Source: a virus. Taken from it: a stretch of DNA of 37,729 bases. The stretch covers positions 1 through 37,729 of the IMG/VR virus record IMGVR_UViG_3300034007_000002. The stretch is one strand, 5' to 3'. Of the stretch, positions 7,500-22,433 are shown one piece after another. The translations under genes and the position numbers were made by a program. Below the pieces are notes generated by a model. That model saw only the letters and a program-made list of their open reading frames with translations. It had not been told where the DNA came from and did not search any database. How positions within the stretch are numbered: the stretch's first letter is position 1; every line of letters begins with the position of its first letter.

Positions 7500-8594
7500 A
7501 TGAGCAACACGCAATTTCTACAGGAGCCGGAACCGCTCGACAGGGAGCAGAACCTCGAAGGCTTCCTCAAGCTACGGCTGCAAAGCCTTGACCGAGCCGT
7601 CGCGGGTTACGTGTCCGTCTCGCTGCAAGGGCTGACCGGCAACGTAGACCTCTCGCCGCCTCAGGCGAAGTACAGGGTCGTGAAGTTGACGGGGGCGCCT
7701 TCGGGCGCCGTCAGCGTCCGCATCCCCGCCACGACCGGCGCGAACGCGGATATTATCTTCGTCAACACCTGCACCGGCTCTAGTTCCACCGTGACGCTCA
7801 AGAGCACGGGCGCGAACGCCGGCAACTCGTCGGGCGTCTCGCTCGCCACGGGTAAGACGCGGCACGTCAGGCACGACGGGGAGAGCGTCTACCCGGTGGC
7901 GCCCGAGCAGGCGACCACGCCGAGCACGCTGACCTCTAGCCTCGTCGCCTACTACAAACTTGACGAGTGGGCGGGGATGCGACTGGACTCGGTCGGCACC
8001 GGCCACCTGACCGACAACAACACCGTGACGCAGAACCCCGGCAAGCTCGGCGCGGCGGCGCAGTTCACGGCCGCAAATTCCGAATACCTGTCCGTCGCCG
8101 ACAACCCGGCGCTCTCGATGGGTAACATCGAGTTCACCGTCTGCGCGTGGGTGTACCTCGACAGCAAGACGGCGGCGCGCACCGTCTGCGCCAAGCGCGG
8201 CGTCGCCGGCGTGAGCGGCGGCGAGTTCTCACTCGTCTACGACAACTCGGCCGACCGCTTCCTCTTCTCCGTCTTCGACTCGACGACGGGTGCTAACACC
8301 GCGACGGCTAACATCTTCGGCAGCCCCTCGACCGGCACCTGGTACTTCCTCGTCGGCATGGTGGAAGGCGGGAACGTGAAGATCAGCGTCAACGGCGGGG
8401 CGTTCAACACGACCGCGAAGACCGTCACCATCCCCGACTCCGCACACCCCTTCTACATCGGCGCGCAGCAGCCGACGCCGACCTTCTTTTGGGACGGGAG
8501 GATTGATACCGTAGGTATTTGGAAGCGGGCGCTGACGGCCGCCGATCTCACGGAGCTTTACAACGGCGGCGCCGGTAAGGAGTACCCGTTCTAG
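7500..8594 (+). CDS. Tail fibre / receptor-binding protein with C-terminal LamG (concanavalin-A-like lectin) domain
   Basis: The C-terminal 220 aa read LVAYYKLDE...GHLTDNN...AAQFTAANSEYLSV...FTVCAWVYLDS...FSLVYD...WYFLVGM...ISVNG...FYIGAQ...FWDGRIDTVGIWKRALTAADLTELYNGG. This is the Laminin_G_3 pattern. It is the last gene of the tail block. Confidence 0.75.
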   Translation: MSNTQFLQEPEPLDREQNLEGFLKLRLQSLDRAVAGYVSVSLQGLTGNVDLSPPQAKYRVVKLTGAPSGAVSVRIPATTGANADIIFVNTCTGSSSTVTLKSTGANAGNSSGVSLATGKTRHVRHDGESVYPVAPEQATTPSTLTSSLVAYYKLDEWAGMRLDSVGTGHLTDNNTVTQNPGKLGAAAQFTAANSEYLSVADNPALSMGNIEFTVCAWVYLDSKTAARTVCAKRGVAGVSGGEFSLVYDNSADRFLFSVFDSTTGANTATANIFGSPSTGTWYFLVGMVEGGNVKISVNGGAFNTTAKTVTIPDSAHPFYIGAQQPTPTFFWDGRIDTVGIWKRALTAADLTELYNGGAGKEYPF

Positions 8595-9283: not shown

Positions 9284-9721
9284 ATGGAAGACCCAGATAA
9301 AGAACTGGAATCGTCGGCATCAACGGATCAGGGCAATCGCGCGCCTGCTGGCGGTGCGGAGGGGAGAATCGACCTTCAGTATACGCAGCCCGGCGGCCGT
9401 GTGCAGAGGACGAGCCTGACACAGTTCGCCCTCGTTAACCAATACGATGCGCATCATCGTATTTGGAGGTCGGAAGGAAGGGCTCGCGATAGACGAACTG
9501 AATATATTATGCAAGTCGCGTGTGACGTATCAAATCGAATCTTGACCGTCACGTTGAACAGTTACGTGTTTACGGCCCCTAGCACGCATATGCACGCTGT
9601 ACTTTTCAATGCAGGAAGAACCCTCGAAATAGGCTTCCTGAGAGACACCGAAGCGCACACCGATACCCCAGGGGACCAGTATCTAATCGGGAGGAATTCT
9701 CGTTTGAAGCTTTCCCTCTGA
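9284..9721 (+). CDS. Hypothetical protein (145 aa), lower-GC gene
   Basis: ORF with AGGAG 6 nt upstream of the ATG. No recognisable family. Confidence 0.55.
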   Translation: MEDPDKELESSASTDQGNRAPAGGAEGRIDLQYTQPGGRVQRTSLTQFALVNQYDAHHRIWRSEGRARDRRTEYIMQVACDVSNRILTVTLNSYVFTAPSTHMHAVLFNAGRTLEIGFLRDTEAHTDTPGDQYLIGRNSRLKLSL

Positions 9722-9832
9722 TCGCCAAGCCGCTTCCTAGAACCGCACCTCGCACGAGTGTTAGATGCTTGACGGATGAACGGCGTAGTAGGTCAGGACG
9801 CCCCCGGCACTGCCGGCCGAGTAGCTGCGCGC

Positions 9833-9874
9833 CGAAAAAAGAAGAGGGGCGAGCCCCCGAAGAGGCCCGCCCCC
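9833..9874 (-). terminator. Rho-independent terminator of the leftward SprB-like gene
   Basis: Minus-strand RNA is GGGGCGGGCC-loop-GGGCUCGCCCC, a 10-bp stem with one G-U pair, followed by UCUUCUUUUUU. Confidence 0.6.
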
Positions 9875-9920
9875 GATGGTGTCAGAGATGCCGACGACGC
9901 GTACCGTGAAGCCCTGTCCC

Positions 9921-10277
9921 TTAATAGGTGCAGGGGGCTGCAAACCCCTCAGCAGTCACCGTGCCGCTGCTATCAGTCACCTTGAAAATGACGAGCGAGG
10001 TTCCCCGATCGGTATTGCAGGGGGCGGTCATGTAGGCTGCCGTGGGGGAAGACCAGCCGCTGGTGGTCGGCACCGGAGTCCATGTAGCAGTGTAACTGCC
10101 CGTGCCCCCGCTCACCACGGCGTGACAGCTAACTTTACCCTGCCCGATGTACCAGCAATCCAGGTAGTCCACCGACAGCGCGGTTCTGGCGGCGGCGGGG
10201 CCCGGCGAGACGCTCAGCAGCGCGACGACCGAGATCATGAGGAGGACGAGGAGTCGAACCCAGCGAGTGTTGAGCAT
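9921..10277 (-). CDS. Secreted single-domain Ig/SprB-repeat-like protein (118 aa)
   Basis: Signal peptide MLNTRWVRLLVLLMISVVALLSVSPGPAAA, then C-x10-C...SGGTGSYTATW...VTDSSG...C. It is a paralog of 19948..20271 and has AGGAG upstream of the start. Confidence 0.8.
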   Translation of the reverse strand: MLNTRWVRLLVLLMISVVALLSVSPGPAAARTALSVDYLDCWYIGQGKVSCHAVVSGGTGSYTATWTPVPTTSGWSSPTAAYMTAPCNTDRGTSLVIFKVTDSSGTVTAEGFAAPCTY

Positions 10278-10344
10278 TGTGTTCTCCTATAGAGATAGAG
10301 GTAGAGGTTAGAGTGGATGCGGAGTGAGGTTAAGGCGCAGGGAA

Positions 10345-10373
10345 ATCTTGCATGACGTGTCCGGGGTTGTCAA
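10345..10373 (-). promoter_or_regulatory. Sigma70-type promoter TTGACA-17-CAAGAT for 9921..10277
   Basis: Reverse complement of 10368-10373 is TTGACA, followed by a 17-bp spacer; reverse complement of 10345-10350 is CAAGAT. Confidence 0.5.
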
Positions 10374-10416: not shown

Positions 10417-10445
10417 TTGACACCACGCACCTCCGGTCGTATCGT
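10417..10445 (+). promoter_or_regulatory. Sigma70-type promoter TTGACA-17-TATCGT for the Cys-rich peptide gene
   Basis: TTGACA at 10417-10422, a 17-bp spacer, TATCGT at 10440-10445. The same hexamers and spacing occur at 19394-19422 and 20343-20371. Confidence 0.65.
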
Positions 10446-10505
10446 TCCCCCGTCACGGCCCCTCAACCTCATCGGCTTATGCTACTCACGACGAAGGAGA
10501 ACATC

Positions 10506-10700
10506 ATGCTGAAACGACTCACGCGCAAACTCATCACACTGTCCGTGCTCGTCGTCGCCCTCGCGGCCGTTTCGTCCGCTCCCGCCTCGGCTACGAGCTT
10601 TAACTGGGAATGCTATCAGGCACTCGACCCGAATACGGGGGAGTGCGTTATAATTTGCTGCGATGGTTCATGGTGCGACGGGACCCCCTGCCCAACCTAG
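10506..10700 (+). CDS. Secreted Cys-rich mini-protein (64-aa precursor, 6 Cys in about 35 mature residues)
   Basis: AAGGAG lies 6 nt upstream of ATG 10506. The product is signal peptide MLKRLTRKLITLSVLVVALAAVSSAPASA followed by TSFNWECYQALDPNTGECVIICCDGSWCDGTPCPT. Confidence 0.8.
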   Translation: MLKRLTRKLITLSVLVVALAAVSSAPASATSFNWECYQALDPNTGECVIICCDGSWCDGTPCPT

Positions 10701-12973: not shown

Positions 12974-13002
12974 AGTCTAACGCGAGAGAAAGGGAAAGTC
13001 AA
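12974..13002 (-). promoter_or_regulatory. Leftward promoter TTGACT-17-TAGACT
   Basis: The minus strand reads TTGACT ttccctttctctcgcgt TAGACT. The -10 is embedded in CGCGTTAGACTT. Confidence 0.55.
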
Positions 13003-13016
13003 ACTAACAATTACTC

Positions 13017-13046
13017 TTGCGTAAACTTTTCTTTGGCGTTAGACTT
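13017..13046 (+). promoter_or_regulatory. Rightward promoter TTGCGT-17-TAGACT, 8 nt upstream of ATG 13054 (leaderless mRNA predicted)
   Basis: TTGCGT aaacttttctttggcgt TAGACT tcccagcc ATG. The -10 is embedded in GGCGTTAGACTT. No SD can fit in the 8-nt gap. Confidence 0.55.
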
Positions 13047-13053
13047 CCCAGCC

Positions 13054-13272
13054 ATGAGTGCAACACTTACGACCAAAGAAGCAGCCGAGCGCCTCGGAGT
13101 TTCGCCAGCGCGCGTGCGTCAACTTGTACTTTCGGGCGAACTGCCGGCTGAAAAGTTCGGCCGTGACCTGATGATTAAAGAAGGTGATTTGAAGTTGGTC
13201 GCGGATCGCCCGATAGGTCGGCCGCCGAAGGCGCAGACCAAGAACACAGCAAAGAAAGGCAGTAAGAAATGA
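13054..13272 (+). CDS. Excisionase/MerR-like HTH DNA-binding protein (72 aa)
   Basis: LTTKEAAERLGVSPARVRQLVLSGELPAEKFGRDLMIKEGDL fits the HTH_17 / excisionase-family pattern. The C-terminal tail is AKKGSKK. Confidence 0.75.
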   Translation: MSATLTTKEAAERLGVSPARVRQLVLSGELPAEKFGRDLMIKEGDLKLVADRPIGRPPKAQTKNTAKKGSKK

Positions 13273-13514
13273 GCAGACAGCCACTTTCACCACCAGCAGA
13301 GCTAGACCTCGAAGACATAGCGGAAGGAATCACCGCTGTGCTTGATGGCCAAGACGCAATACTGAAGATGCTATGGTCGATACGAAGTGGCGTTAATGCG
13401 TCTTTCTTGGATGACTCCGATTTTCAGGTCATTAATATGCGGCGCAACTTCGCGCGGAACAATTTGAGAGTCAAGTCCGCTGCCGCAAAGGCAAAGAAAG
13501 GCGGGAAGAAGTAA
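13269..13514 (+). CDS. Hypothetical small acidic protein (81 aa), C-terminal tail AKKGGKK
   Basis: ATGA overlap with the upstream gene. No recognisable family. Confidence 0.6.
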   Translation: MSRQPLSPPAELDLEDIAEGITAVLDGQDAILKMLWSIRSGVNASFLDDSDFQVINMRRNFARNNLRVKSAAAKAKKGGKK

Positions 13515-13531
13515 GTTACGACTCCTGTGAA

Positions 13532-13885
13532 GTGAATAGAATGAAAAAGTCAGAACAAAAGTTGCTACGTAAATCCCTGAACAAGATTCTTCCTAGGGAT
13601 AGAGTTTCGCGGGAGGAACTAATTGGTAAAACTCCGCAGGAGCGGACAGATATACTTCTAGACCGCCTTGTGACTCCCGAGCAACAAGAGCGCGCAGGGC
13701 GCTATATGAACCGGACATTAGTGAGAATCTCTCTGCGAGAGGCACCCTCAGACGATGTGCCTCCCATAGATAAGATCAAGCTCTACGCCCGCTCCGGCTA
13801 CCACCTGCACCACATCGGCACGGATGAGGACTTCGAGCAAGTGTGGGAAGAGGCATTCCCTGAAGAGAAAGGCGGGAAGAAGTGA
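13532..13885 (+). CDS. Hypothetical protein (117 aa; alternative ATG at 13541), C-terminal tail EKGGKK
   Basis: ORF in series with its neighbours. No recognisable family. Confidence 0.55.
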   Translation: MNRMKKSEQKLLRKSLNKILPRDRVSREELIGKTPQERTDILLDRLVTPEQQERAGRYMNRTLVRISLREAPSDDVPPIDKIKLYARSGYHLHHIGTDEDFEQVWEEAFPEEKGGKK

Positions 13886-13953
13886 GCGGTGAGGAGATTA
13901 AATTGGCTGATGTGAGATACAAGGCGGCGCGCGAGCTGCGATAGGAAAGACCA

Positions 13954-14334
13954 TTGTTCGAGTCTGAAGAAGAGAAGAGAGTCAAATTTCTCTCCCGCAT
14001 TACCGATGAGGCGTATGAGCTTGCGATTCGGCTCGGCGTTTCAGAGGCTGCGGAGGGGGGAAGCGAGAGCGACCTGTACGCCCTCGAAAAGCTGTACCGC
14101 ATCCGGCTCATGGCTGTGCGGCGGATGATACGTCGCTGGAATGCTTCCACCGAAGCCGATATAGAGTTTAGGAAGACCGACGAGCAGAAGGCCCGGGACG
14201 CGCGCCACGCAGAACTGACCGAAATGTTCATGCGCGAGAAAGGGATGTCGCGGGTCGATGCGATGGTCGCGGCGTCGGGCGCCATGTACATGGAGGTCTA
14301 CAGCAAAGACAAGGACGACGATCTCGCTAACTAA
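13954..14334 (+). CDS. Hypothetical protein (126 aa, TTG start uncertain)
   Basis: ORF in the same operon-like series. No recognisable family. Confidence 0.45.
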   Translation: MFESEEEKRVKFLSRITDEAYELAIRLGVSEAAEGGSESDLYALEKLYRIRLMAVRRMIRRWNASTEADIEFRKTDEQKARDARHAELTEMFMREKGMSRVDAMVAASGAMYMEVYSKDKDDDLAN

Positions 14335-14373
14335 CGTCCCCGAGTACGACGGGCGACGAGGAGGGCAGTTACA

Positions 14374-14562
14374 GTGGAACTAGAGCTTGGAGAGTATGCG
14401 CGGTGGATTCTCGTCGAAAGCCCCGATGACTTCGACTGGGAAGAAGTGAGCTATGACGGGCACGGGTACGTCATCCTGAAGGACAGAAGCAGGCTCGACG
14501 TGAAACCGGATTTGTATCGGGCCGAGCGAGAGGCATGGAACGCAGAGCGGCATAGTAGATAG
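14374..14562 (+). CDS. Hypothetical small acidic protein (62 aa)
   Basis: GTG start preceded by GAGGAGG. No recognisable family. Confidence 0.5.
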   Translation: MELELGEYARWILVESPDDFDWEEVSYDGHGYVILKDRSRLDVKPDLYRAEREAWNAERHSR

Positions 14563-14609
14563 CAGTCTTAATGTCACTAACGTCATACTCGGCGAAGGTT
14601 TAGAGGGTT

Positions 14610-15308
14610 ATGGACGAAATAGCAACTCAGAAGTTCGTAAAGGAAGCAGTCTCACAATTCGTAGAGCTATGGGAAGATATTCCTGAAGCCCAACTAATCA
14701 AGCGCGACTCCAATCACTTCTTAATTGTTAAACCAACCTCTCTAATAAAAGAACTAAATGATGCCATACCATACGCAACGATACACATAAACTTAGAAGA
14801 GTTGTCCAGGCATTTTTTAAAGTCCGGGTCTATCGGGGAGCCAAGTATAGATAAAAGGTACATTGCTAAATTACAGATTCACGACATGCTCCGTACGGCT
14901 GAACTTGCCCCTAGCGTCTTCTCCTATTTCCTTAATTTTCTAGAGATATTGACGCTCCGAGAAGGTTTGGAGTCCCTATTAGGGTCTTTATCTGAAGACT
15001 CAAAGACAAAACTTGCAGAAGTTGCTGAACGCCTATTTCAAGTCATGTTGCAGCACTATAAGCTTCTGAAGGAGACAAAGCCCGGAGCCTCAAGTGTTAT
15101 TACTGATTTTGAAGCGCTTGAGGTCTTCCGCAAATCTAGGAATAGAGTGCTTTCCAAACGCCAATTAGCAAAAGAGATGCAAACAACTCCGGCTACCGTG
15201 CGTAGTTGGCTTCACAGAAAGGGATTCAAATCATCTGAAGAATTGCTGGATGATCTTTTAAAGCGTATTCACACTCTAATAGACAATGCACGGGAGGGTG
15301 AGAAGTAA
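14610..15308 (+). CDS. Low-GC paralog 1: unknown N-terminal domain plus C-terminal HTH
   Basis: Aligns by eye with 15380..16147. The N-termini share MDE..Q...K..V..F...W.D.PEAQ..KRD..HFLIVK and HINLEE. The C-termini share KPGASSVI...LAKE..T.PATVR.WL..KG..S..EL.DD. Confidence 0.75.
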   Translation: MDEIATQKFVKEAVSQFVELWEDIPEAQLIKRDSNHFLIVKPTSLIKELNDAIPYATIHINLEELSRHFLKSGSIGEPSIDKRYIAKLQIHDMLRTAELAPSVFSYFLNFLEILTLREGLESLLGSLSEDSKTKLAEVAERLFQVMLQHYKLLKETKPGASSVITDFEALEVFRKSRNRVLSKRQLAKEMQTTPATVRSWLHRKGFKSSEELLDDLLKRIHTLIDNAREGEK

Positions 15309-15379
15309 GTCGCTTTAGTTAGTGTTAGCCGCAGCCCGGTATGACCAAGAGCACAGTGTTAAGTAGAAGCTGAAAAGTT

Positions 15380-16147
15380 ATGGACGAAGAGGCAATCCAG
15401 AGGCTTGCGAAGAACGTAGTAGTGACGTTTCTAGTGGATTGGAAAGACACGCCCGAGGCGCAGGTGGTTAAGCGAGACGGGGCACATTTCTTGATCGTGA
15501 AGCTAGACTCACCGTTCTCTGCTGCGTTACATATCAATCTGGAAGAGAGATGCGAGCATGAGCTAAAACATCTCTACGAAGTAGTCGGGACGGAAGAAAG
15601 TGCGGACGATACTACTGACCTTATTTATAGTCTCGTCTATCGCCTACCACAGGAACTAACTTACATAACTAGAAGCGTGCCCGGTCTCTTCATCTACAGT
15701 CTTCATCTGCTGGACTTGTTAGCGTACCGTGAGCGCCTACGATCTGTATCAGAGTCTTTAACTCAAGGCAGACGGGAAAGGACTGAACTAGTAGCCAGAA
15801 TATTAACTCAAGGGTTATTACTGGCGCATGGCTTAACAGAGAGAAAGAAGCCGGGAGCATCAAGTGTCATCGATGACGACAAAGTACTTGATATTTTTCT
15901 TAGACTCCAAGGTGACGTGCCTTCAATCCGTAGGTTAGCAAAAGAACTAGAAACCGAACCTGCCACCGTGCGTAACTGGCTTCGCAAGAAGGGCTACAAC
16001 TCGCCTAAAGAATTAGCAGACGACGTAGTAAATTCAAATTCCAACTCAAAAGTAGATTTCTTTCTAAAAGTCAAAAGGTTACTTACTAAAAGTCAAAAGG
16101 GAACAACGGAAAGAAAGCAAAGGGGGAGGGTAGAAATTAAGCCCTAA
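15380..16147 (+). CDS. Low-GC paralog 2: unknown N-terminal domain plus C-terminal HTH
   Basis: Shares the motifs listed for 14610..15308. Its last codons lie inside the left arm of the 33-bp inverted repeat. Confidence 0.75.
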   Translation: MDEEAIQRLAKNVVVTFLVDWKDTPEAQVVKRDGAHFLIVKLDSPFSAALHINLEERCEHELKHLYEVVGTEESADDTTDLIYSLVYRLPQELTYITRSVPGLFIYSLHLLDLLAYRERLRSVSESLTQGRRERTELVARILTQGLLLAHGLTERKKPGASSVIDDDKVLDIFLRLQGDVPSIRRLAKELETEPATVRNWLRKKGYNSPKELADDVVNSNSNSKVDFFLKVKRLLTKSQKGTTERKQRGRVEIKP

Positions 16148-16247: not shown

Positions 16248-16506
16248 ACAGAAGCGGCGGGTGTGGCCCTGGAAAGTCAACACCCGCCGCGAGTCAAACC
16301 AGGACTTTTGACAGCCCCGGCTCGTTTGCGAGTGTAGCGAGAACCGACCCGGGGCGCAACAGCCATGAAGGCCGCCCCGTGATGGCGCTCTCTAGTAGGG
16401 CGTCGGCTGAGCCGTAGGTTTAGGTTTCTCGCGCACCGCTTTGCGTGAGATGGCAGGGCGTTCGTCGTCGGGGGTCACGGCCCGACGGCGGACGCCTTTT
16501 GCTTTT
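16248..16506 (+). ncRNA. Candidate structured RNA or attenuator leader of about 260 nt between promoter and terminator
   Basis: No convincing ORF. There is an 11-bp perfect stem, GCGGCGGGTGT...ACACCCGCCGC, at about 16254-16290. Nested CCCCGG/CCGGGG helices follow, and the region ends in the strong terminator at 16457-16506. Confidence 0.35.
16457..16506 (+). terminator. Strong rho-independent terminator
   Basis: A 16-bp stem pairs 16457-16472 with 16481-16496 (two G-U pairs) around an 8-nt loop, followed by TTTTGCTTTT. Confidence 0.7.
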
Positions 16507-16526
16507 GACGGCGGCCGGTATCACGC

Positions 16527-16859
16527 ATGAAAAACCCCTTTCAGAACGGTTCGCTACGTTACGTCGAGGCGAACGGCGTCCGCTTTACTCGATCCGTCTG
16601 CGGGTACTGCGGTCTTCCCTGTGTCTACCTGGGGGAGGCCATCCGCATCGACTTAGCCGAGGGCGGCTTCCAAATCCTCCACGTCTGCCTCCCCTGCCGA
16701 CGGCACCTGTGTTTAGACCTGCGGGGGTTATCGGACGCCGAAGTAGACCGCCTCGGATATCCCAGCGGGTATCCCAGCGGGTATCCCAACCGCTCGCCGA
16801 GAAACGAGCGCCACCTCGAAGAAGTGCACAGCCGGTGGGAAAGGAGACGTGCAGCGTAA
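16527..16859 (+). CDS. Zinc-ribbon protein (110 aa) with a GYPSGYPSGYP repeat, translationally coupled to the primase gene
   Basis: CGYCG...C...HVCLPC forms a four-Cys motif. Its TAA overlaps the primase ATG (TAATG). The alternative frame, the N-terminal extension of the 774-aa ORF, is Arg-rich and protein-unlike. There is no clear SD before ATG 16527. Confidence 0.55.
   Translation: MKNPFQNGSLRYVEANGVRFTRSVCGYCGLPCVYLGEAIRIDLAEGGFQILHVCLPCRRHLCLDLRGLSDAEVDRLGYPSGYPSGYPNRSPRNERHLEEVHSRWERRRAA
16756..16791. repeat. Tandem 12-bp repeat x3 (GATATCCCAGCG GGTATCCCAGCG GGTATCCCAACC)
   Basis: Read directly. It lies inside the zinc-ribbon ORF, about 70-100 bp upstream of the primase start. Confidence 0.9.
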
Positions 16860-18769
16860 TGGCTCAGCCCGCCACGGCCTTCACGAAGCAGGACGCGAAG
16901 AGGGACCGCCAGACTTACCAGCGGCTCGCCGGCATCGTTGACCGCCTCCTGCACCGTGACATCCAACGCCTCGACGAAGAGACGGCGCGGAAGTTCTTCA
17001 AGTCGTCGGTCTTCGCCACCATCCACAGCCTGCACGGATTCCTGAACGGCCGCGAGGTCTCGCACGACAGGCCGGTGATGAAGGCTCACAAGTTCGTCGT
17101 CGAGCACTTCGGCTACCGCGGCGACCGCGAGAACGACGCGGCCGTCGCGCGCTTCATGGCGCGCCACCTCTCGGGGCTGGCCGACGCGGAGAGGGCCGTC
17201 GGGCACCGGTACGTCACCGTCCGCCGCGCCGACAATCAGACCCAGCTCTTCACCAGCTACGAGGGCACACCGCTGCTCGACGCGGCCGAGTGGGTCTACT
17301 TCACGGCGCGGCAGAAGCCCGACTACTGGAAGAACCCGGCGGCGGCCGTGACGGACGATTTGCTCGACGCCGCGCTCGCCAAACTCCCCGAGGTCAAGAC
17401 GCGGGACGACTCCATGCCGTGCGGTCATGCGCCCGAATCCGGCGAGTGCGACGAGTGCGTGCCTAAGACCTTCTGCGGGCATCCTTCGGGGTCGGGCCAG
17501 TGCGAAGAGTGCGAGAAATGGGAGGCGGGCGACCTGATGAACGATTCAGTCGTCAAGGGCATGTGGACGAAGATAATAAACGCCGCCGAGCGGGCGTTAA
17601 TCAAGGAGTTCGATTCCGGCGCGGACCCGGAGCTGGCCGCCGCCAAACACGCCGCGAAGATTATCGAGATGGGCAAGCATATCAAGGAGAAGCTCGCCCG
17701 CGAGCGGCTTCGGGCGGCGATGATGCCTGCGCGGCGACATGACGAGGAGGACGAGGACACGCAAACGACGCACAGTGGTAAAGAAAGTGTTACCTCAAAC
17801 GCGGGGGGTACCCCTGACAAATTTGTCAGGGTACCCGATGATTATGTAGTTGAACCGGTTGAGGTTACTGAACCGGCCGCAGAGGATTTACCCGAAATTC
17901 AGCGCAACGCGCTCGAATACGCGGCGGCGGGGATCGCCGTCCTCCCGCTGTGGGGGGTCGCGGACGCGATTTGTGATTGCCCCGCGGGTTCGGAGTGCCG
18001 GACGGCCGGGAAGCACCCGCACAGCCAGCTCGCCCGGAACGGCGTCTACTCGGCTACGATCGACGGGCAGGTCATACGCGGCTGGTTCAAGAAAGACCCG
18101 CGGATCAACCTGGGGGTTGCGATGGGCGGCGCCCTCAACCTCATCTGCGTAGACATAGACCCGCGCAACGACGGCGACGCCTCGTATTCAGATTTGATAG
18201 ACGCCCACGGCGAAGACGCCTTTCCCGAGACGTTCACCGTGAAGACCGGCGGGGGCGGCTGGCACCGCTACTACAGGCTCCCCTACACCATCAAAGCCGA
18301 GAAAGGCGAGCTAAAGGGAAAGCTCGGCCCCGGCATCGACATCAAAGGCGCGGGCGGGCAGATAGTCGCGCCCGGCTCAGTTCACTCAAGCGGCGCTTCC
18401 TATCAGGTCGAAACTAACGCCTACATCGTGGAAGCCCCGGAGTGGATGGTAAACGTCCTGCTCAAGTCGGCGTCCGGCGAGAAGCCCGAGGTCGTTGTTG
18501 ACTTTCAGGCGCACAGCGACCGGAAGCGCGCGGGGGTGGGCGGCCCAATCATCGTCGAGGGCGAGCGCAACGAAAGGCTCTTTAAGGTCGGGTGCGCGCT
18601 GTGGGGCAAGGGCGAAGTGGGGAGCCGGGGGGAGTTGTTACAGCGCCTCTCCGAAGTGAACCTCAAAAGGGTGTCACCCCCGCTCGACTCGGATGAGGTT
18701 TGGAAGATTGTTGAGAGCATAGTGAGCCGCTACGCCCTAGGCGTGCCGATTAAGGAAGGTGCCGCATGA
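16859..18769 (+). CDS. Bifunctional primase-polymerase (Prim-Pol domain plus PriCT-like C-terminus) with a roughly 330-aa N-terminal region of unknown type
   Basis: AAGGAG lies upstream of ATG 16859. Prim-Pol motifs are GIAVLPLWG...GKHP...NLICVDIDPRNDG...GGGWHRYY...GIDIKGAGGQIVAPGSVH. The C-terminus GERNERLFKVGCALWGKG...PLDSDEVWKIVESI is PriCT-like. Confidence 0.85.
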   Translation: MAQPATAFTKQDAKRDRQTYQRLAGIVDRLLHRDIQRLDEETARKFFKSSVFATIHSLHGFLNGREVSHDRPVMKAHKFVVEHFGYRGDRENDAAVARFMARHLSGLADAERAVGHRYVTVRRADNQTQLFTSYEGTPLLDAAEWVYFTARQKPDYWKNPAAAVTDDLLDAALAKLPEVKTRDDSMPCGHAPESGECDECVPKTFCGHPSGSGQCEECEKWEAGDLMNDSVVKGMWTKIINAAERALIKEFDSGADPELAAAKHAAKIIEMGKHIKEKLARERLRAAMMPARRHDEEDEDTQTTHSGKESVTSNAGGTPDKFVRVPDDYVVEPVEVTEPAAEDLPEIQRNALEYAAAGIAVLPLWGVADAICDCPAGSECRTAGKHPHSQLARNGVYSATIDGQVIRGWFKKDPRINLGVAMGGALNLICVDIDPRNDGDASYSDLIDAHGEDAFPETFTVKTGGGGWHRYYRLPYTIKAEKGELKGKLGPGIDIKGAGGQIVAPGSVHSSGASYQVETNAYIVEAPEWMVNVLLKSASGEKPEVVVDFQAHSDRKRAGVGGPIIVEGERNERLFKVGCALWGKGEVGSRGELLQRLSEVNLKRVSPPLDSDEVWKIVESIVSRYALGVPIKEGAA

Positions 18770-18903
18770 CCGCCCGCTTCTTCACTTCCTCGATAATCGG
18801 TTGTGCCTAAAAATAGTCCCTTGCCCAACGGAACGGAAGTCTTCCCAACAAAAGGTGAGGCCGCGCACGCCCCTCGCCAAGCTTCCGGCTAAACCAAAGC
18901 TCT

Positions 18904-18942
18904 CCAAAAAAAAGAAAGAAGCGGCGAGGGGTGGCTCGCCGC
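18904..18942 (-). terminator. Rho-independent terminator of the leftward Cys-rich peptide gene
   Basis: Minus-strand stem GCGGCGAG-loop-CUCGCCGC followed by UUCUUUCUUUUUUUU. Confidence 0.7.
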
Positions 18943-18960
18943 TCTCTCGGGGTCTGGATT

Positions 18961-19149
18961 CTACGGTGCTACCTGACTGGCGCAGGGGCCGCCCGTCGTG
19001 TCGTGAACGCACCAGTAGTAACAGGTCTTATCGGCACCGCAATAGTCGGCGCAACATTTGCTGGCCACCATAGCTGGACCGTCGTCGTCAAAGGGAACAA
19101 CGGACAGTAATGCGACGAGCATCGTGAGCAAGACGAGTCTCTTTTTCAT
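18961..19149 (-). CDS. Secreted Cys-rich mini-protein (62-aa precursor, 6 Cys)
   Basis: AAGGAG SD; signal peptide MKKRLVLLTMLVALLSVVPF, then ...KCCADYCGADKTCYYWCVHDTTGGPC.... Confidence 0.75.
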   Translation of the reverse strand: MKKRLVLLTMLVALLSVVPFDDDGPAMVASKCCADYCGADKTCYYWCVHDTTGGPCASQVAP

Positions 19150-19230
19150 TGAGGGCTCCTTTTGAGTGCTGAGGGTTGATGGGAGGCCGACGGAGTTGAG
19201 GCCGTCAACCGTGAATCGCCATACCCGGGC

Positions 19231-19259
19231 AGCTTAATTGTGGTCGCCGCCCCTGTCAA
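19231..19259 (-). promoter_or_regulatory. Promoter TTGACA-17-TAAGCT for 18961..19149
   Basis: Reverse complement of 19254-19259 is TTGACA, followed by a 17-bp spacer; reverse complement of 19231-19236 is TAAGCT. Confidence 0.55.
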
Positions 19260-19393
19260 TCTTTTACGCGAAGGACGATCGGCGTGAGGGTTCTGCCTAG
19301 CGAAACAATTTCCTGCCCAACAGAACGCCGGTCAGCTTGTCCCGTTAGGCAAAGCCGGTCGAGCCGTATCGCCGCCATACAACAGGCTGCCCG

Positions 19394-19422
19394 TTGACAG
19401 CCCTCCCCTCCCGGCGTATCGT
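19394..19422 (+). promoter_or_regulatory. Promoter TTGACA-17-TATCGT for 19497..19754
   Basis: TTGACA at 19394-19399 and TATCGT at 19417-19422. The leader resembles the one at 10417-10505. Confidence 0.65.
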
Positions 19423-19496
19423 TACCGCGTTCCTCGGTTGCGTTACGGTCCCTCAACCTCAACGGCTCCAGGCCACTCACGACGAAGGAGAACACC

Positions 19497-19754
19497 ATGC
19501 TGAAACATCCCGCGGGGCGACTCGCCCGCCGCCTCTCCGCCCTGTTCATGCTCGCCGCCGCCCTCACGACGCTCCTGTCAAATCCCGTTAGCCACCAAGC
19601 CGAGGGTTGGGCGGGCACTCCCGACTGGCCGCCGTGCTGTGGGTATACGTGTTCTCTGTCAATAGACGATGAGACGCAACAGTGCGTTATGACTTGCTGC
19701 CGGTGGCCGTCAGGCTGCATGACGGGCCCTTGCAGTCCAGAAGTGGAACCGTAG
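19497..19754 (+). CDS. Secreted Cys-rich mini-protein (85-aa precursor, 8 Cys), paralog of 10506..10700
   Basis: AAGGAG SD and a hydrophobic signal region. The tail CCGYTCSLSIDDETQQCVMTCCRWPSGCMTGPCSP aligns with ECVIICCDGSWCDGTPCP of the paralog. Confidence 0.8.
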   Translation: MLKHPAGRLARRLSALFMLAAALTTLLSNPVSHQAEGWAGTPDWPPCCGYTCSLSIDDETQQCVMTCCRWPSGCMTGPCSPEVEP

Positions 19755-19889
19755 GGCCCGATGACCCGGCGGCCGCGCTCCACGTGCCGATGCTGGGCGC
19801 GGCCCGACATCACAGAGCCCCACCTCTCATGTCACCGGTGACACCACAGACCTCTGGTCCGTAGTGTCAGGGGCCGGATAGAAGTAAAT

Positions 19890-19925
19890 GGGGGGGGCGG
19901 TACCTTCTGCGGTACCGCCCCCCCC
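19890..19925. terminator. Perfect 15-bp hairpin between convergent genes (likely bidirectional terminator)
   Basis: GGGGGGGGCGGTACC-ttctgc-GGTACCGCCCCCCCC. The flanking U-tracts are weak. Confidence 0.55.
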
Positions 19926-19947
19926 TCACCTTGTGCCGAAGCGGCCC

Positions 19948-20271
19948 CTACTGGCAGTAGAACAGGTCGGAGTAGTAGCCGGTCTCGCCGTTAGCGTCCG
20001 TCACGGTCACGGAGATGGTCCTGCTGATGCCGGAACATCCGATGCGCAGTGACTGCCCGCTCCCAGTAATCGGCGACGGCCCCCACGCATAGGTGTAAGG
20101 GGCCGTGCCCCCGTACACCTCGGTCGTACAGCGCAGTTGATCGTAGGCCAAGCCTATACAGTCTATACTGACGATTGGGCCTGTCCGGGCCTCGACAGGT
20201 TTGACCGGGGCGGCCAGCGGCGCGAGGGCGACGAACGCGAGGGCGAGCGCCAGAATCAGTTTATAACGCAT
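19948..20271 (-). CDS. Secreted single-domain Ig/SprB-repeat-like protein (107 aa), paralog of 9921..10277
   Basis: Signal peptide MRYKLILALALAFVALAPLAAP, then C-x10-C...YGGTAPYTYAW...VTDANGETG...C. Confidence 0.8.
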   Translation of the reverse strand: MRYKLILALALAFVALAPLAAPVKPVEARTGPIVSIDCIGLAYDQLRCTTEVYGGTAPYTYAWGPSPITGSGQSLRIGCSGISRTISVTVTDANGETGYYSDLFYCQ

Positions 20272-20342
20272 TGTGAGTCTCCTTGGTGAAGCGGACGTTA
20301 AACGAATGAGGTTGAGGGCCTCGCTTTAAAGGGAACGCGGGA

Positions 20343-20371
20343 ACGATACGCCCGGCGGTGGCGGGTGTCAA
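20343..20371 (-). promoter_or_regulatory. Promoter TTGACA-17-TATCGT for 19948..20271
   Basis: Reverse complement of 20366-20371 is TTGACA, followed by a 17-bp spacer; reverse complement of 20343-20348 is TATCGT. Confidence 0.65.
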
Positions 20372-20406
20372 CGATTAACCTTCCCCTCCCGAGCCGCCCG
20401 TCTCTC

Positions 20407-20471: not shown

Positions 20472-20702
20472 ATGACCAGAACTTTAACGGCGACGATCTG
20501 GCGCGAGACGGACGGCTACGTCTCCCTCTGCCCCGAACTCGACATCGCCTCACAAGGGGATACGGTCGAGGAGGCGCGGGCGAACCTCCAGGAGGCGGTG
20601 GACCTCTTCTTCGAGGCGGCGGACGCCTCCGAGGTGGCCGAGCGTCTGAAGCCCGAGATGTACGTCACTTCGCTGGAGGTCAACGTTGGGGAGGCTGCGT
20701 AG
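20472..20702 (+). CDS. hicB: HicB-family antitoxin
   Basis: LTATIWRETDGYVSLCPELDIASQGDTVEEARANLQEAVDLFFE fits the HicB/UPF0150 N-terminal pattern. It overlaps the downstream toxin gene. Confidence 0.85.
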   Translation: MTRTLTATIWRETDGYVSLCPELDIASQGDTVEEARANLQEAVDLFFEAADASEVAERLKPEMYVTSLEVNVGEAA

Positions 20703-20910
20703 GCTCTCGGGGCGCGAGGTCTGCGCCATCCTCGCCCGCCACGGCTTCGCCGAGGCCCGCCAGCGCGGGAGTCACGTGGTCATGCAGAGGAGGACGGACC
20801 AGGGGACGGTGACCGTGCCGGTACCCCTCCACAACGAGCTGCGCACCGGCACGCTCCACTCCATCATCAGGCAGTCGGGGGTTCCGCGGGCGGAGTTCGA
20901 GACGGAGTAA
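20686..20910 (+). CDS. hicA: HicA-family mRNA interferase toxin (TTG start)
   Basis: LSGREVCAILARHGFAEARQRGSHVVMQR....VTVPVPLHNELRTGTLHSIIRQSGV fits the HicA/YcfA pattern. Confidence 0.85.
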   Translation: MGRLRRLSGREVCAILARHGFAEARQRGSHVVMQRRTDQGTVTVPVPLHNELRTGTLHSIIRQSGVPRAEFETE

Positions 20911-21575: not shown

Positions 21576-22433
21576 ATGAAGGCTTACAAGGATTTTGGCC
21601 TTAAAGAGAATCCATTCGTGCCGAGTCCGAACCCCCGGTTCCTCTACCTGACCGACCAGACGAATGCTTGCCTCTTCAAGTGCAAGTTTGTCATCGAGGA
21701 GCGGCAGGGACTCTCCCTCATCGTCGGGAAAATCGGCTACGGCAAGACTTCGGTGCTGCGCGAGCTCCTGAACGGGTACATCGACGACGAGACTTACAAG
21801 ATCGCGATGCTCCCGAACGGCAGCTTCCCTTCCGAGATGCAGCTCGCGAAGGCCATCTCCAGTGAGTTGGGGCTCCCGGGTCGCCGGTCATTACTCGCGC
21901 AAATAAATGAGATACGCGACTACGCTTTCCAGATTTACGGCGGCGGCGGGACCATCATTCTCATCATCGACGAGGCGCAGAATCTTAAGGGCGCTCAGTT
22001 CGATTTCCTCCGGGAATTGCTCAATTTTGAGAGTAACGAGGCGAAGACCATTCAGATCATCATCGCCGGCCAGCCCGAGATTGAAACCAAACTGGCGACC
22101 AAGCCCGCACTCGTCTCCCGCATCATCCTGACGAACTACCTGGATACCTTCACGTTCGAGGACATGGTGGCCGCCCTGGAGCACCGGATACGCCTCGCCG
22201 GGGGTAAGCTCGACATCCTCGGTGAGGACGCGTTGAAGGCTCTCTACGTCGCTTCCAGGGGCGTCCCGCGCGAGATCATGAAGATTGCCAACGCTTCCCT
22301 TCTCCTCGCGGCCGTCAACGAAACCAGACCGATCACCGACGGCATCATCAAGCTAGCGGTCGAGAACATTTTGAGCACGGAACGAAATGGAGAACCGGAA
22401 ACCACTGAACTTCGCGCAGGCGCTTCGCAGTAG
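21576..22433 (+). CDS. ExeA-like AAA+ ATPase (AAA_22 type; relatives include ExeA, TniB and MuB-like proteins)
   Basis: FGLKENPFVPSPNPRFLYLTDQ...LIVGKIGYGKTSVLRELL (Walker A) and IILIIDEAQNL (Walker B). Confidence 0.85.
   Translation: MKAYKDFGLKENPFVPSPNPRFLYLTDQTNACLFKCKFVIEERQGLSLIVGKIGYGKTSVLRELLNGYIDDETYKIAMLPNGSFPSEMQLAKAISSELGLPGRRSLLAQINEIRDYAFQIYGGGGTIILIIDEAQNLKGAQFDFLRELLNFESNEAKTIQIIIAGQPEIETKLATKPALVSRIILTNYLDTFTFEDMVAALEHRIRLAGGKLDILGEDALKALYVASRGVPREIMKIANASLLLAAVNETRPITDGIIKLAVENILSTERNGEPETTELRAGASQ

Follow-up and report, generated by a model that had tools for sequence, protein, structure and literature searches.

Three short genes stand between the primase gene and hicBA of a soil phage, and they raise the question of where such units come from, what they have in common and what their products may do outside the cytoplasm. 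The window, the whole stretch of 37,729 nucleotides that was analysed, is a complete ~37.6-kb tailed phage of a soil bacterium (Pyrinomonadaceae, Acidobacteriota host) with an RcGTA-like tail module that includes an NlpC/P60 hydrolase, Prim-Pol, HicA, a gpA-type terminase, portal and capsid; its ends are redundant over at least 100 nt, as expected of a circular assembly. Neither an integrase nor a repressor turned up in the window, and lysogeny, with it the "lysogenic conversion" suggested originally, is not established for this phage. The three ORFs of locus 2 were recovered as predicted:

16445-18769, Prim-Pol/PriCT primase, flanking locus 2
18961-19149, minus strand, gene for a 62-aa pre-peptide with a Sec-type signal, an acidic linker and a CC-3-C-5-C-3-C-8-C core
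19497-19754, plus strand, gene for an 85-aa pre-peptide with a conserved MLK…-type signal and an 8-Cys core
19948-20271, minus strand, gene for a 107-aa predicted secreted PKD/Ig-like protein with four conserved Cys and the motifs GGTAPYTYAW and VTVTDANG
20472-20910, hicB/hicA, the other flank of locus 2

The cysteine patterns originally given for the 62-aa peptide and for the 85-aa peptide (CC-3-C-10-C-3-CC-5-C-4-C) are exact, and the C-x10-C stated for the Ig-like protein has to be corrected to C38-x9-C48. N-terminal signal peptides were detected heuristically in all three products, in agreement with the original prediction, with an n-region charge of +2 to +4, a hydrophobic 12-mer core of mean KD 2.3-3.3 and (-3,-1) cleavage candidates. 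The same heuristic rates VEA↓R, AAA↓R and ASA↓T as canonical cleavage sites; the Ig-like protein is probably cleaved at VEA↓RTG, and the candidates in the 62-aa and 85-aa products are weaker and not canonical AxA. The AlphaFold2 models (Ig-like protein, peptide) contain an N-terminal helix. Judged by these sequence features, Sec export of the cassette products is plausible; in a diderm, Sec alone leads only to the periplasm, and release to the medium is assumed.

Each of the three genes has its own putative control elements, i.e. an exact TTGACA box with a 17-nt spacer, as predicted, together with a -10 hexamer, and an AAGGAG Shine-Dalgarno sequence 6-7 nt upstream of the ATG:

18909-18944, minus strand, terminator-like hairpin and T-run of the 62-aa gene (hairpin 18944-18919; 10-bp stem, 7 GC pairs, CTTTCTTTTT tail)
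19156-19161, minus strand, AAGGAG Shine-Dalgarno of the 62-aa gene, read from the sequence
19192-19201, minus strand, leader motif CCTCAACTCC of the 62-aa gene, a variant of the invariant CCTCAACCTC
19231-19259, minus strand, putative promoter of the 62-aa gene, TTGACA-17-TAAGCT, with the same architecture as its host counterpart in L004
19394-19422, plus strand, putative promoter of the 85-aa gene, TTGACA-17-TATCGT, from the promoter scan and leader comparison
19423-19496, plus strand, 5' leader of the 85-aa gene, with GTTCC near its 5' end, CCCTCAACCTCA at 19450-19461 and AAGGAG at 19485-19490
19890-19925, unstranded, G+C-rich 15-bp hairpin between the convergent genes, putative terminator of the Ig-like gene with the T-run on the minus strand
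20272-20342, minus strand, 5' leader of the Ig-like gene, with AAGGAG at 20279-20284 and CCTCAACCTC at 20308-20317
20343-20371, minus strand, putative promoter of the Ig-like gene, TTGACA-17-TATCGT, divergent from hicB

The promoter and terminator calls rest on consensus and conservation. Between 8.5 and 21.5 kb the promoter scan detected 13 promoter-like sites where 3.5 were expected. A hairpin terminator had been claimed for every gene, which holds for the two minus-strand genes, and the hairpin of the 62-aa gene marks where the homology to host locus L004 stops on the 3' side. The plus-strand 85-aa gene lacks a hairpin with a T-run that belongs to it alone; its sole candidate is the convergent hairpin, ~135 nt downstream and without a plus-strand T-run. 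The leaders of the 85-aa and Ig-like genes were recognised by nhmmer (E = 2e-23 and 4e-23, respectively). The leader motif CCTYAACYYC occurs seven times in the window against 0.35 expected, five of the seven within the five cassette leaders of the phage, and TTGACA followed by this motif at leader spacing gave four matches against 0.00 expected. RNAalifold on 25 leaders returned zero consensus pairs, i.e. no conserved structure, occlusion of the Shine-Dalgarno sequence was equal to shuffled controls, and Rfam gave no match at gathering thresholds within the window.

The remaining two cassettes are in locus 1:

9845-10373, minus strand, Ig-like cassette (terminator 9874-9845, gene 9921-10277, CCTTAACCTC 10326-10335, TTGACA 10373-10368)
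10417-10700, plus strand, peptide cassette (promoter 10417-10445, leader CCTCAACCTC 10461-10470, 64-aa gene 10506-10700)

Locus-1 paralogs had been proposed for all three genes. They exist for the 85-aa peptide (the 64-aa pre-peptide, C-10-C-3-CC-4-C-4-C, 41% identical) and for the Ig-like protein (118 aa, 34% identical to the 107-aa protein), and none was found in locus 1 for the 62-aa peptide. All five phage cassettes are intact with conserved cysteines. One slot follows the tail-fibre genes of the phage and the other lies beside the toxin-antitoxin pair.

Comparison with bacterial genomes demonstrated the host origin of these units. Window positions 18909-19269, which reach from ~10 bp ahead of the -35 box to the end of the terminator, share 79% identity with L004, a Pyrinomonadaceae MAG; for the Ig-like unit (19960-20377) the identity is 71%, to a unit located between yggT and a PF1765-like gene in a 5.17-Mb Acidobacteriota chromosome. 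Aligned in this way, the cassettes are host-derived transcription units, and the phages sample a Pyrinomonadaceae multigene family, most members of which are chromosomal, multi-copy and outside prophages. What the units share is a recurrent ~100-bp promoter-leader module, TTGACA-17-TATCGT…GTTCCC…CCCTCAACCTCA…AAGGAG, found in Pyrinomonadaceae/Acidobacteriota genomes. The probe TTGACA-N17-TAWBST…CTYAACCTC…AAGGAG gave matches in 18 stretches from genomes, 13 belonging to Pyrinomonadaceae/Acidobacteriota, and in 11 from metagenomes, and downstream of every acidobacterial or metagenome match there is a 59-145-aa Cys-rich ORF with a signal peptide. This set holds 27 unique leaders and at least seven cargo types; the shared module carries two C-C-CC-C-C frameworks, CC-C-C-C-C, helical 8-Cys peptides, the PKD/Ig-like domain and others.

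The original prediction described a repeated pairing of peptide and Ig-like genes. The two are adjacent twice in the phage and likewise in L009 and L016, and the pairing as a functional module does not stand: the Ig-like gene is solitary among housekeeping genes in hosts (L001, L002) and alone in locus 2 of a sister phage, and peptide genes occur alone at many host loci. The common denominator of these genes is the conserved promoter/leader module, i.e. a common regulon, not a two-component module.

The moron-like architecture proposed originally was confirmed, since the units are autonomous and close relatives of the phage either carry them, lack them or have other units instead. The sister phage L010/L040 keeps the Ig-like gene (~91% DNA identity); both peptide cassettes are absent from L010, with flanks 90-92% identical, and its locus-1 slot holds a gene for a ~140-aa secreted protein behind the same leader. 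In L128 a hicB-adjacent peptide takes the place of the Ig-like gene, with the junction between promoter and hicB preserved, and in L134 a truncated peptide precedes a further secreted protein. At least one cassette was thus found at the two fixed slots in all four phage genomes (the window and three related contigs), and because the three related contigs carry different cargo in the same two slots, the cassettes are exchangeable morons. They have their own putative promoters and, in two of the three genes of locus 2, terminator-like hairpins, the 85-aa gene sharing the convergent hairpin, and lie between conserved genes.

Phage morons or lysogenic-conversion cassettes, e.g. lambda bor and lom, were reportedly defined by Hendrix and colleagues. 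Like them, the present cassettes are autonomous promoter-gene-terminator units between conserved phage modules, with a layout that implies transcription separate from, and in part opposite to, that of their neighbours, variably present in close relatives, and they encode predicted envelope or exported proteins. They differ from morons in that all five use one host promoter/leader module and one protein superfamily logic, and in that their donors are identifiable as a host chromosomal multigene family. The statement that this is not a described phage module agrees with our searches: no family in Pfam, NCBIfam, Rfam, PHROG or PADLOC covers the cassettes, and neither these databases nor any paper in the literature searched gives a description.

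The peptide superfamily comprises 73 representatives at E<=1e-3, 24 of them at E<=1e-10, in at least 73 clusters. The signal peptide is near-invariant, and the mature domains are unalignable, with 6, 8 or 10 Cys; the Cys count is always even across the 66 members scanned, and the net charge is zero or below in 97% of members (mean -2.5). DNA identity falls from 78% in the leader and 74% in the signal region to 60% in the mature region (shuffled baseline 55%), and dS rises from 0.30 for the signal to 0.66 for the mature part. A mosaic was seen in L016, whose signal shows 90% identity and whose mature domain shows 38%. Alignable pairs are under purifying selection (omega <1), and no positive selection was detected in them; we infer an arms race from the diversity, not from omega above 1. 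For the 62-aa gene, omega is 0.28 against L004, all six Cys are kept in four homologs, and its family shows a weak, sub-threshold match to mussel myticin prepropeptides (E = 4e-4, 20.9 bits vs the 28.5 cut-off). The cysteines are conserved in homologs and the frames are maintained across dozens of them with omega below 1, which answers the doubts on coding and on cysteine conservation voiced with the original prediction.

Families with a conserved signal and a hypervariable mature peptide have been described as mussel MgCRP-I (PMC4558851) and conotoxins (PMC11860864). Conotoxin and other animal or plant Cys-rich superfamilies likewise combine a near-invariant signal, a hypervariable mature region, fixed Cys frameworks and multigene organisation, with synonymous divergence lower in the signal than in the mature region. 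Unlike them, the present system is bacterial and intron-free, its conservation reaches upstream through the 5' UTR and promoter, propeptide-processing sites are not evident, the mature parts are anionic and alignable pairs lack positive selection.

The classical ICK loop consensus is CX3-7CX3-6CX0-5CX1-4CX4-13C. The name knottin, used in the original prediction, holds for two features, the C-C-CC-C-C order of six Cys in a ~30-residue core and a predicted small three-stranded antiparallel sheet; it does not hold for the loop lengths, and Foldseek found no knottin. The C-C-CC-C-C order occurs in the 85-aa core (modelled by AlphaFold2 as three beta-strands, pLDDT ~82) and in the 64-aa peptide and is the commonest arrangement among the 66 members, whereas the framework of the 62-aa peptide is different (CC-C-C-C-C). 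In the phage peptides loop 1 has 10 residues and loop 4 has 4-5; the other main framework (C-1-C), with loop 1 usually of 8 (range 5-9) and loop 5 of 1, is also outside the ICK consensus. Searches with the peptide core against the PDB gave no knottin match (best E 1.5 by Foldseek, which is weak for ~30-residue domains, so that a knottin fold is not excluded by this result; best E 1.2 by sequence profile), and Pfam assigned none of the 66 members to a toxin or knottin family. The KNOTTIN database lists predicted "bacterial knottins" without experimental structures (PMC5753296).

The third protein was predicted to have an Ig-type fold, and AlphaFold2 with a structure search points to a PKD-like beta-sandwich. 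Residues 31-107 are modelled as all beta with pLDDT 92-97 (about 95 over the mature domain), and the best PDB matches in Foldseek are the PKD domains of ColG, PrtV and Epp (TM 0.69-0.76, E ~2e-3). The gene has omega 0.58-0.80. The predicted ~78-residue sandwich and the GGTxPYTYxW and VTVTDxxG motifs are shared with PKD domains and SprB repeats, respectively. The SprB-like description stands at the motif level and not as full membership, because the protein scores below the Pfam PF13573 threshold (13.9 bits vs 28, residues 52-63 only); two homologs, P0018 and P0027, carry a precomputed PF13573 assignment. The family profile also matches PDB "decoration protein" entries (5lxk, 8zvi; E ~1e-4). 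The known systems named for this protein are the ColG and PrtV PKD domains, 5lxk, 8zvi and a Hoc-like PHROG. In contrast to PKD/SprB and phage-displayed Ig-like domains, the present protein consists of one domain, carries a signal peptide of its own and probably has two disulfides, and it is neither a giant-adhesin repeat nor an appendage of a virion or an enzyme.

Polymorphic toxin systems and prochlorosin-type combinatorial peptide families join a conserved N-terminal module to many C-terminal modules. The cassettes likewise recombine a conserved N-terminal trafficking or leader module with unrelated C-terminal modules in multiple copies per genome, but they come without immunity genes and without dedicated secretion or modification machinery, and their N-terminal module is an ordinary Sec signal whose conserved unit includes the promoter and 5' UTR. 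A class II bacteriocin or RiPP precursor was considered and rejected: the N-terminus is a hydrophobic Sec signal, and partner genes are lacking in the phage and host neighbourhoods examined.

The 62-aa cassette is bracketed by a short direct repeat:

18811-18835, plus strand, left copy of the 25-nt direct repeat (…TTGCCCAACGGAACG), with the host REP-like TGCCCAACRG motif, 76% identical to the right copy
19303-19327, plus strand, right copy of the 25-nt direct repeat (…CTGCCCAACAGAACG), its motif also found just upstream of the L007 host cassette

Around host cassettes the TGCCYMAWAAG / TGCCCAACRG motifs are over-represented, with 20 of 34 hits falling in 14.8% of the sequence (p ~4e-9), leader remnants and degraded cassettes occur in host loci, and a DDE transposase adjoins cassettes in L004, L007 and L016. 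An integron gene cassette was rejected as a candidate, as the units have their own promoters, no integrase was found in the window or host loci, and the repeats are short, direct and not attC-like.

Taken together, we suggest that locus 2 is an accessory slot holding three autonomous host-derived morons whose products act as extracytoplasmic antagonistic binders. This reading as a whole is reasonably probable; its structural and evolutionary part is highly likely, and the antagonistic binder function is put forward tentatively. Each unit has a putative promoter of the sigma-70 type, a leader of ~70-80 nt that bears an invariant CCUCAACCUC-type motif, a strong Shine-Dalgarno sequence, a predicted Sec signal and a small disulfide-rich mature domain, and two of the three also have a terminator-like hairpin. 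The cassettes would be transcribed by host RNA polymerase and regulated just as the copies of the host are; the products would be exported by Sec, cleaved by signal peptidase I and given 2-4 disulfides by periplasmic thiol oxidases. Stable and mostly anionic, these mini-proteins may act as binders or inhibitors outside the cytoplasm against competitors, grazers or other phages, and the phage would thereby change the extracellular repertoire of the infected or lysogenic cell.

Other readings of the same data have to be weighed. Periplasmic or outer-membrane mini-proteins could serve superinfection exclusion or envelope protection by blocking phages or neutralising periplasm-acting toxins, for instance by inhibiting tail-associated peptidoglycan hydrolases or masking receptors. 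The phage-borne, apparently autonomous expression in classical moron positions is consistent with this, a Sec signal without a further secretion system implies a periplasmic location, and an anionic, compact, disulfide-locked scaffold suits an inhibitor; such hydrolases are relevant targets in this host because the phage's own tail carries one. This role is nevertheless rather unlikely: the family is mostly chromosomal and multi-copy and not in prophages, neither PADLOC nor a PHROG with a known role in exclusion matches it, and nothing links the cassettes to a target. Bacteriocin-like or antimicrobial toxins, aimed at rival bacteria or fungi and joined by the PKD/Ig-like protein in the role of partner, carrier or immunity factor, are unlikely. 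The bacteriocin reading of the original prediction is weakened by the anionic charge of the peptides and by the neighbourhoods examined, where a PCAT/ABC exporter, modification enzyme and immunity gene are absent; a double-glycine leader is also lacking, and either of the two, the Ig-like gene or a peptide gene, is often found without the other. The conserved export region with a variable C-terminal core, resembling bacteriocin and polymorphic-toxin logic, the cases of peptide/Ig-like adjacency and the weak myticin similarity would fit such toxins.

The repeats, remnants and transposase described above would also be expected of selfish or neutral hitch-hikers, REP/MITE-like-embedded mobile units that recombine via the 5' module or the repeats without benefit to the phage. 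Such hitch-hiking is quite unlikely given five intact phage copies with conserved cysteines, at least one cassette kept at the same two slots in four phage genomes, and the packaging-size constraint on phage genomes. Secreted signalling peptides, cell-cell or phage-phage, with a receptor encoded elsewhere are very improbable. The peptides are small, predicted to be Sec-exported and under dedicated promoters, and an XRE-type regulator and a TPR/sigma-54 activator adjoin peptide genes in L004 and L007, but the phage cassettes have neither a receptor gene nor a processing gene linked to them, the extreme diversity and multi-copy clusters per genome are hard to square with a signal-receptor pair, and the mature parts are 30-50-residue disulfide-rich domains, not short linear signals.

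Beyond the reading of host-derived morons with antagonistic products, a wider hypothesis is offered as a possibility that we hold with some doubt: Pyrinomonadaceae would own a bacterial counterpart of the venom and plant Cys-rich superfamilies, phages would use its module as a homology handle, and CCCUCAACCUCA would be a regulator site. The portable module, i.e. the promoter, the leader with an invariant single-stranded CCCUCAACCUCA and the Sec signal, would be recombined with a library of disulfide-rich domains; phages would load, swap and spread effectors at fixed slots through homology in the 5' module, and a putative regulator (protein or sRNA) binding CCCUCAACCUCA would control the whole secreted repertoire.

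Acidobacteriota are abundant in soils, and their extracellular biology is almost unknown. If the proposed explanation is true, they would have a lineage-wide repertoire of stable disulfide-rich mini-proteins, a class sought after as inhibitor and binder scaffolds, in at least 73 clusters with several Cys frameworks and several copies per genome, and the ~100-bp promoter/leader would be a simple DNA signature for finding new members whatever the cargo sequence. It would also show clearly how phages draw on an effector family of their host via a shared regulatory module, with which the acquisition of morons and their effects for phage and host would become testable questions.

Exactly as predicted in coordinates, strand and length, three short genes lie between the primase gene and hicBA (locus 2), and two related cassettes lie in locus 1, after the tail-fibre genes. 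The features are:

9921-10277, minus strand: 118-aa Ig-like paralog, locus 1
10506-10700, plus strand: 64-aa peptide paralog, locus 1
16445-18769: Prim-Pol/PriCT_1 primase, flanking locus 2
18961-19149, minus strand: 62-aa ORF, locus 2
19497-19754, plus strand: 85-aa ORF, locus 2
19890-19925: convergent 15-bp hairpin, the sole hairpin 3' of the plus-strand 85-aa gene
19948-20271, minus strand: 107-aa Ig-like (PKD/Ig-like) ORF, locus 2
20472-20910: hicB-like/HicA pair (HicA, E = 6e-18), flanking locus 2

Each locus-2 gene has an exact TTGACA box, a 17-nt spacer and AAGGAG 6-7 nt 5' of the ATG, as proposed; the -10 hexamers are TATCGT (two promoters) and TAAGCT (one). All three products and the two locus-1 paralogs have predicted signal peptides, in which a charged n-region precedes a strongly hydrophobic core and candidate (-3,-1) cleavage sites, and signal-peptide inspection detected no lipobox in these five. 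Together with the cysteine spacings of the 62-aa and 85-aa peptides, which are exact, this supports the proposed secreted Cys-rich cargo. The original prediction holds in essence, apart from three small errors. The cysteine spacing of the Ig-like protein is C-x9-C, not C-x10-C; paralogs in locus 1, claimed for all three genes, exist for the Ig-like and 85-aa genes but not for the 62-aa gene, locus 1 holding only the 118-aa and 64-aa genes; and the claimed terminator for every gene is present (terminator-like hairpin with T-run) for the two minus-strand genes, but the plus-strand gene has only the convergent hairpin. That reading missed a host-wide family defined by a common promoter/leader/signal module.

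Alignment of the five upstream regions detected one conserved series, CGTTGACA – N17 – TATCGT – TCCCGCGTTCCC – variable – CCCTCAACCTCA – about 23 nt – AAGGAGA – ATG, shared by cassettes 19497(+), 10506(+) and 20271(-) despite unrelated cargo; the remaining two retain TTGACA, the CCTYAACYYC motif and the SD. CCTYAACYYC occurs 7 times in the window (0.35 expected), five times in cassette leaders. The 5' module is also found ahead of a gene for a 107-aa protein homolog on a 5.17-Mb Acidobacteriota chromosome, where that gene stands alone amid ruvC, yebC, yggT, yggS-like and ligA genes. A DNA probe for the module (TTGACA-N17-TAWBST-N12-40-CTYAACCTC-N18-40-AAGGAG) matched 18 stretches of species-representative genomes, with MAGs of Pyrinomonadaceae or other Acidobacteriota accounting for 13; the remaining five, from Planctomycetota, Clostridia, Gammaproteobacteria, Thermoanaerobaculia and Microbacteriaceae, lie 5' of genes such as groES, dnaK and lemA and appear to be chance matches. 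Metagenomes gave 11 more stretches, and all acidobacterial and metagenomic matches are followed by a 59-145-aa ORF with a predicted signal peptide and multiple cysteines (27 unique leaders, at least seven cargo types). The leader profile search detected additional copies, leader remnants and degraded genes. Cassettes cluster, with three each in the retrieved loci L016 and L022, two each in L024 and L033, and at least five intact copies over four contigs of MAG JBEVKV01. The 5' module is lineage-specific and regulon-like.

The leader also drives larger cargo (L038 6190-6627; L033 11250-10957, minus strand; L016 3432-3737), so the regulon reaches beyond mini-proteins. One such product is a 145-aa protein beginning CSGSGCNGLNP, which presumably resembles actinobacterial DUF2690, and another belongs to a family of proteins, about 100 aa long, that have VACV…Y-rich cores. 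In a relaxed leader scan of viral contigs, those matches that lack a TTGACA 5' of them, most of which are in low-GC contigs, look like chance. L033 (37,727 bp) was considered as a twin phage but carries miaA, holB and the like and is a piece of a chromosome.

A conserved RNA structure or riboswitch in the leader is not favoured, as Rfam gave no match, RNAalifold gave zero consensus pairs, and overall SD accessibility is the same (0.26) in leaders and shuffled controls. When leaders are folded singly, the invariant CCCUCAACCUCA stays unpaired (P = 0.89) and the conserved 5' GUUCCC pairs with the SD region in 21 of 25 leaders (5.2 expected pairs vs 1.1 in shuffled controls), both partners of this pairing being nearly invariant. 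The CCCTCAACCTCA motif could be a regulator site, a site for an sRNA with UGAGGUUGAGGG, or a translation element.

DNA identity across family members falls from 78% in promoter and leader to 74% in the signal-coding part and 60% in the mature part (shuffled baseline 55%), and third-codon positions of the signal region are 76% conserved vs 82% for positions 1 and 2. For alignable pairs, dS in the signal and mature regions is 0.30 and 0.66, with omega of 0.45 and 0.28, respectively. The L016 Ig-like gene is a mosaic relative to that of the window, with a signal peptide 90% identical and a mature domain 38% identical. The identity gradient, the dS contrast and this mosaic indicate a 5' module that is homogenised or recombining, attached to cargo modules that are older and diverse, not simple positive selection. 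Positive selection on the mature peptides is also countered by the pooled omega of 0.28 in alignable pairs, and module exchange explains their diversity better. DGR-type diversification is unlikely, as the large ORFs scanned yielded no reverse-transcriptase domain and variation extends beyond a template/variable repeat pair.

The 107-aa protein has 36 homologs, all stand-alone and about 110 aa long, that conserve the signal peptide, four cysteines, GGTxPYTYxW and VTVTDxxG. Residues 31-107 are all beta in the AlphaFold2 model (pLDDT about 95), with the PKD domains of ColG, PrtV and Epp as best PDB matches (TM 0.69-0.76, on target); the protein scores below threshold for Pfam SprB. Omega against homologs is 0.58-0.80, a fast yet constrained rate. 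The family profile weakly matches PDB 'Decoration protein' entries 5lxk and 8zvi (E about 1e-4), and this weak likeness to decoration protein/Hoc-like Ig domains raised a virion decoration role, which is countered by the signal peptide, host promoter, opposite orientation and chromosomal homologs outside prophages. L042 and 71 similar IMG/VR contigs, a large set of prophages unrelated to the window phage, match the protein over about 50 residues at 45% identity, so this Ig-domain subtype is widely used by phages; in L042, the one inspected, the matching segment (GGTAPYTYAW…VVTDADG) is an Ig-like domain at the C-terminus of a 238-aa protein (9473-10189), a candidate major tail protein. In L009, another retrieved locus, an Ig-like member (8038-8526) is split over two frames, with the signal and first Cys pair in one and GGVAPYTYNW…VTDSYG in the other, being either a frameshifted pseudogene or a sequencing error; it clusters with two MLK-type peptides and a 131-aa Cys-rich protein.

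For the 85-aa/64-aa family, a word-indexed search found few relatives, in which a near-invariant signal peptide (MLKRLTRKLITLSVLVVALAAVSSAPAS) precedes Cys-rich cores that are quite unlike one another. With an exhaustive profile search the count rose to 73 cluster representatives at E<=1e-3, 24 of them at E<=1e-10. Two frameworks dominate, C-8-C-4/6-CC-4/6-C-1-C and C-9/10-C-3-CC-4/5-C-4-C, the latter in both phage peptides, alongside helical 8-Cys types and others. Cysteines number 6, 8 or 10 in every member, and net charge is zero or negative in 97% (mean -2.5). In the AlphaFold2 model, the core of the 85-aa peptide (residues 50-80) forms a three-stranded sheet (pLDDT about 82); Foldseek, PDB sequence search, Pfam and NCBIfam gave nothing for the family. 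Hevein/Ac-AMP-like chitin binding, prompted by a recurrent 'CPSGxxCC', was dismissed since Pfam detected no Chitin_bind_1 or related family in 66 members. The 62-aa family keeps all six cysteines in 4/4 homologs (omega 0.28), and its myticin match is sub-threshold.

The phage 62-aa unit (18909-19269) is 79% identical to a chromosomal unit of the Pyrinomonadaceae MAG L004 from about 10 bp 5' of the -35 box through the terminator, and is bracketed by a 25-nt direct repeat; for the other cassettes, homology to host loci starts within about 5 bp of the -35 box. TGCCYMAWAAG / TGCCCAACRG motifs, which are related to this repeat, are over-represented close to host cassettes, where 20 of 34 matches fall in 14.8% of the sequence; the p-value exaggerates this enrichment because the matches cluster and are probably confined to intergenic DNA. 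Clustered TGCCYMAWAAG(TG) / TGCCCAACRG repeats occur in intergenic DNA of host loci (L001 9771-9824, 10441-10460; L007 6067-6203, 6263-6292; L004 2849-2896, 7334-7441), in L007 with an inverted repeat of 64-nt arms, and resemble REP/MITE elements. L004 (5085-6998) and L007 (3595-7083) contain two unrelated peptide families at chromosomal sites of one type: each lies 3' of a SWIM/DDE_Tnp_1 transposase gene, converges with an XRE-type HTH gene and is near a TPR/sigma-54 activator; these neighbours are candidate regulators or mobilisers of the cassettes. Cassette neighbours include housekeeping genes, transposases and XRE regulators; the neighbourhoods examined had no transporter, modification enzyme or immunity-like gene.

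Genuine cassettes were detected in three other viral contigs related to the window phage; one profile-based locus search gave no viral relatives. The sister phage (L010/L040/L132) keeps the Ig-like gene and lacks both peptides, and its locus-1 leader drives a predicted secreted protein of about 140 aa. In L128 a framework-B peptide adjoins hicB, and homology to the window spans hicB through the promoter to 20331 and then switches, while L134 carries the 5' module ahead of a truncated ORF of 32 codons, after which comes another signal-peptide gene. Two slots, one after the tail-fibre genes and one between primase and hicB, thus carry exchangeable host-family members. Slot 1 has a further accessory gene, a 145-aa ORF at 9284-9721 (plus strand) with no signal peptide and no database match; it lies in DNA of lower G+C (0.57), flanked by the tail-fibre gene and the locus-1 cassettes.

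The window is the genome of a tailed phage and a complete circular assembly, since its first 100 nt recur at its end. It encodes a gpA-type large terminase, lambda-type portal and HK97-type capsid, and an RcGTA-like tail module (DUF2460, phiJL001 gp84-like hub, NlpC/P60 at 3613-4098, Rcc01698-like, LamG fibre). GenBank contains no phage close to this one: identity of the large terminase stays <40% throughout, and nothing there matches the locus at the DNA level. Neither integrase nor repressor was recognised in the window, just an HTH_17 excisionase-type protein and a MuB-like AAA+ protein. The latter, an AAA_22/TniB-like ATPase (21576-22433, plus strand), matches PHROG 296 'DNA transposition protein' (E = 3.5e-22), coexists with the Prim-Pol primase and gpA-type terminase, and is 87-88% identical in L010/L040 and L128; no transposase was recognised near it. 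Among the window phage, L010 and L128, hicA (20686-20910) is found only in the first, its position holding a 100-aa ORF of unknown function in L010 (compared 7550-8110) and a 167-aa glycine/arginine-rich ORF in L128 (1679-2182); hicB is conserved in all three, so within the TA pair it is the toxin partner that varies. The 13000-16000 stretch has G+C of 0.46-0.51 vs about 0.64 elsewhere and may be recently acquired; its ORFs 14610-15308 and 15380-16147 have no match in Pfam or PHROG.

The moron-like architecture proposed in the original prediction is borne out by cassettes that are autonomous, host-derived and exchanged as cargo among related phages. The repeated peptide/Ig-like pairing was over-read as a module, and an obligate pair is unlikely since either is found without the other. 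A classical bacteriocin is likewise unlikely, given the anionic peptides and the lack of linked genes for immunity, transport or modification. A periplasmic role against phages or toxins is a serious rival to a binder or inhibitor function; PADLOC gave no matches to an anti-phage defence system.

Morons as a kind of element are already known, whereas the cargo system and portable 5' module appear undescribed; the literature searched held no description of the peptide/Ig-like cassette family, and the KNOTTIN database paper lists 'bacterial knottins' as predicted only, without structures (PMC5753296). Taken together, the cassettes are part of a large superfamily of exported mini-proteins rich in Cys, accompanied by a PKD-like protein, whose products would be exported by Sec, would form disulfides in the periplasm and may act extracytoplasmically as stable binders or inhibitors in biotic interactions.
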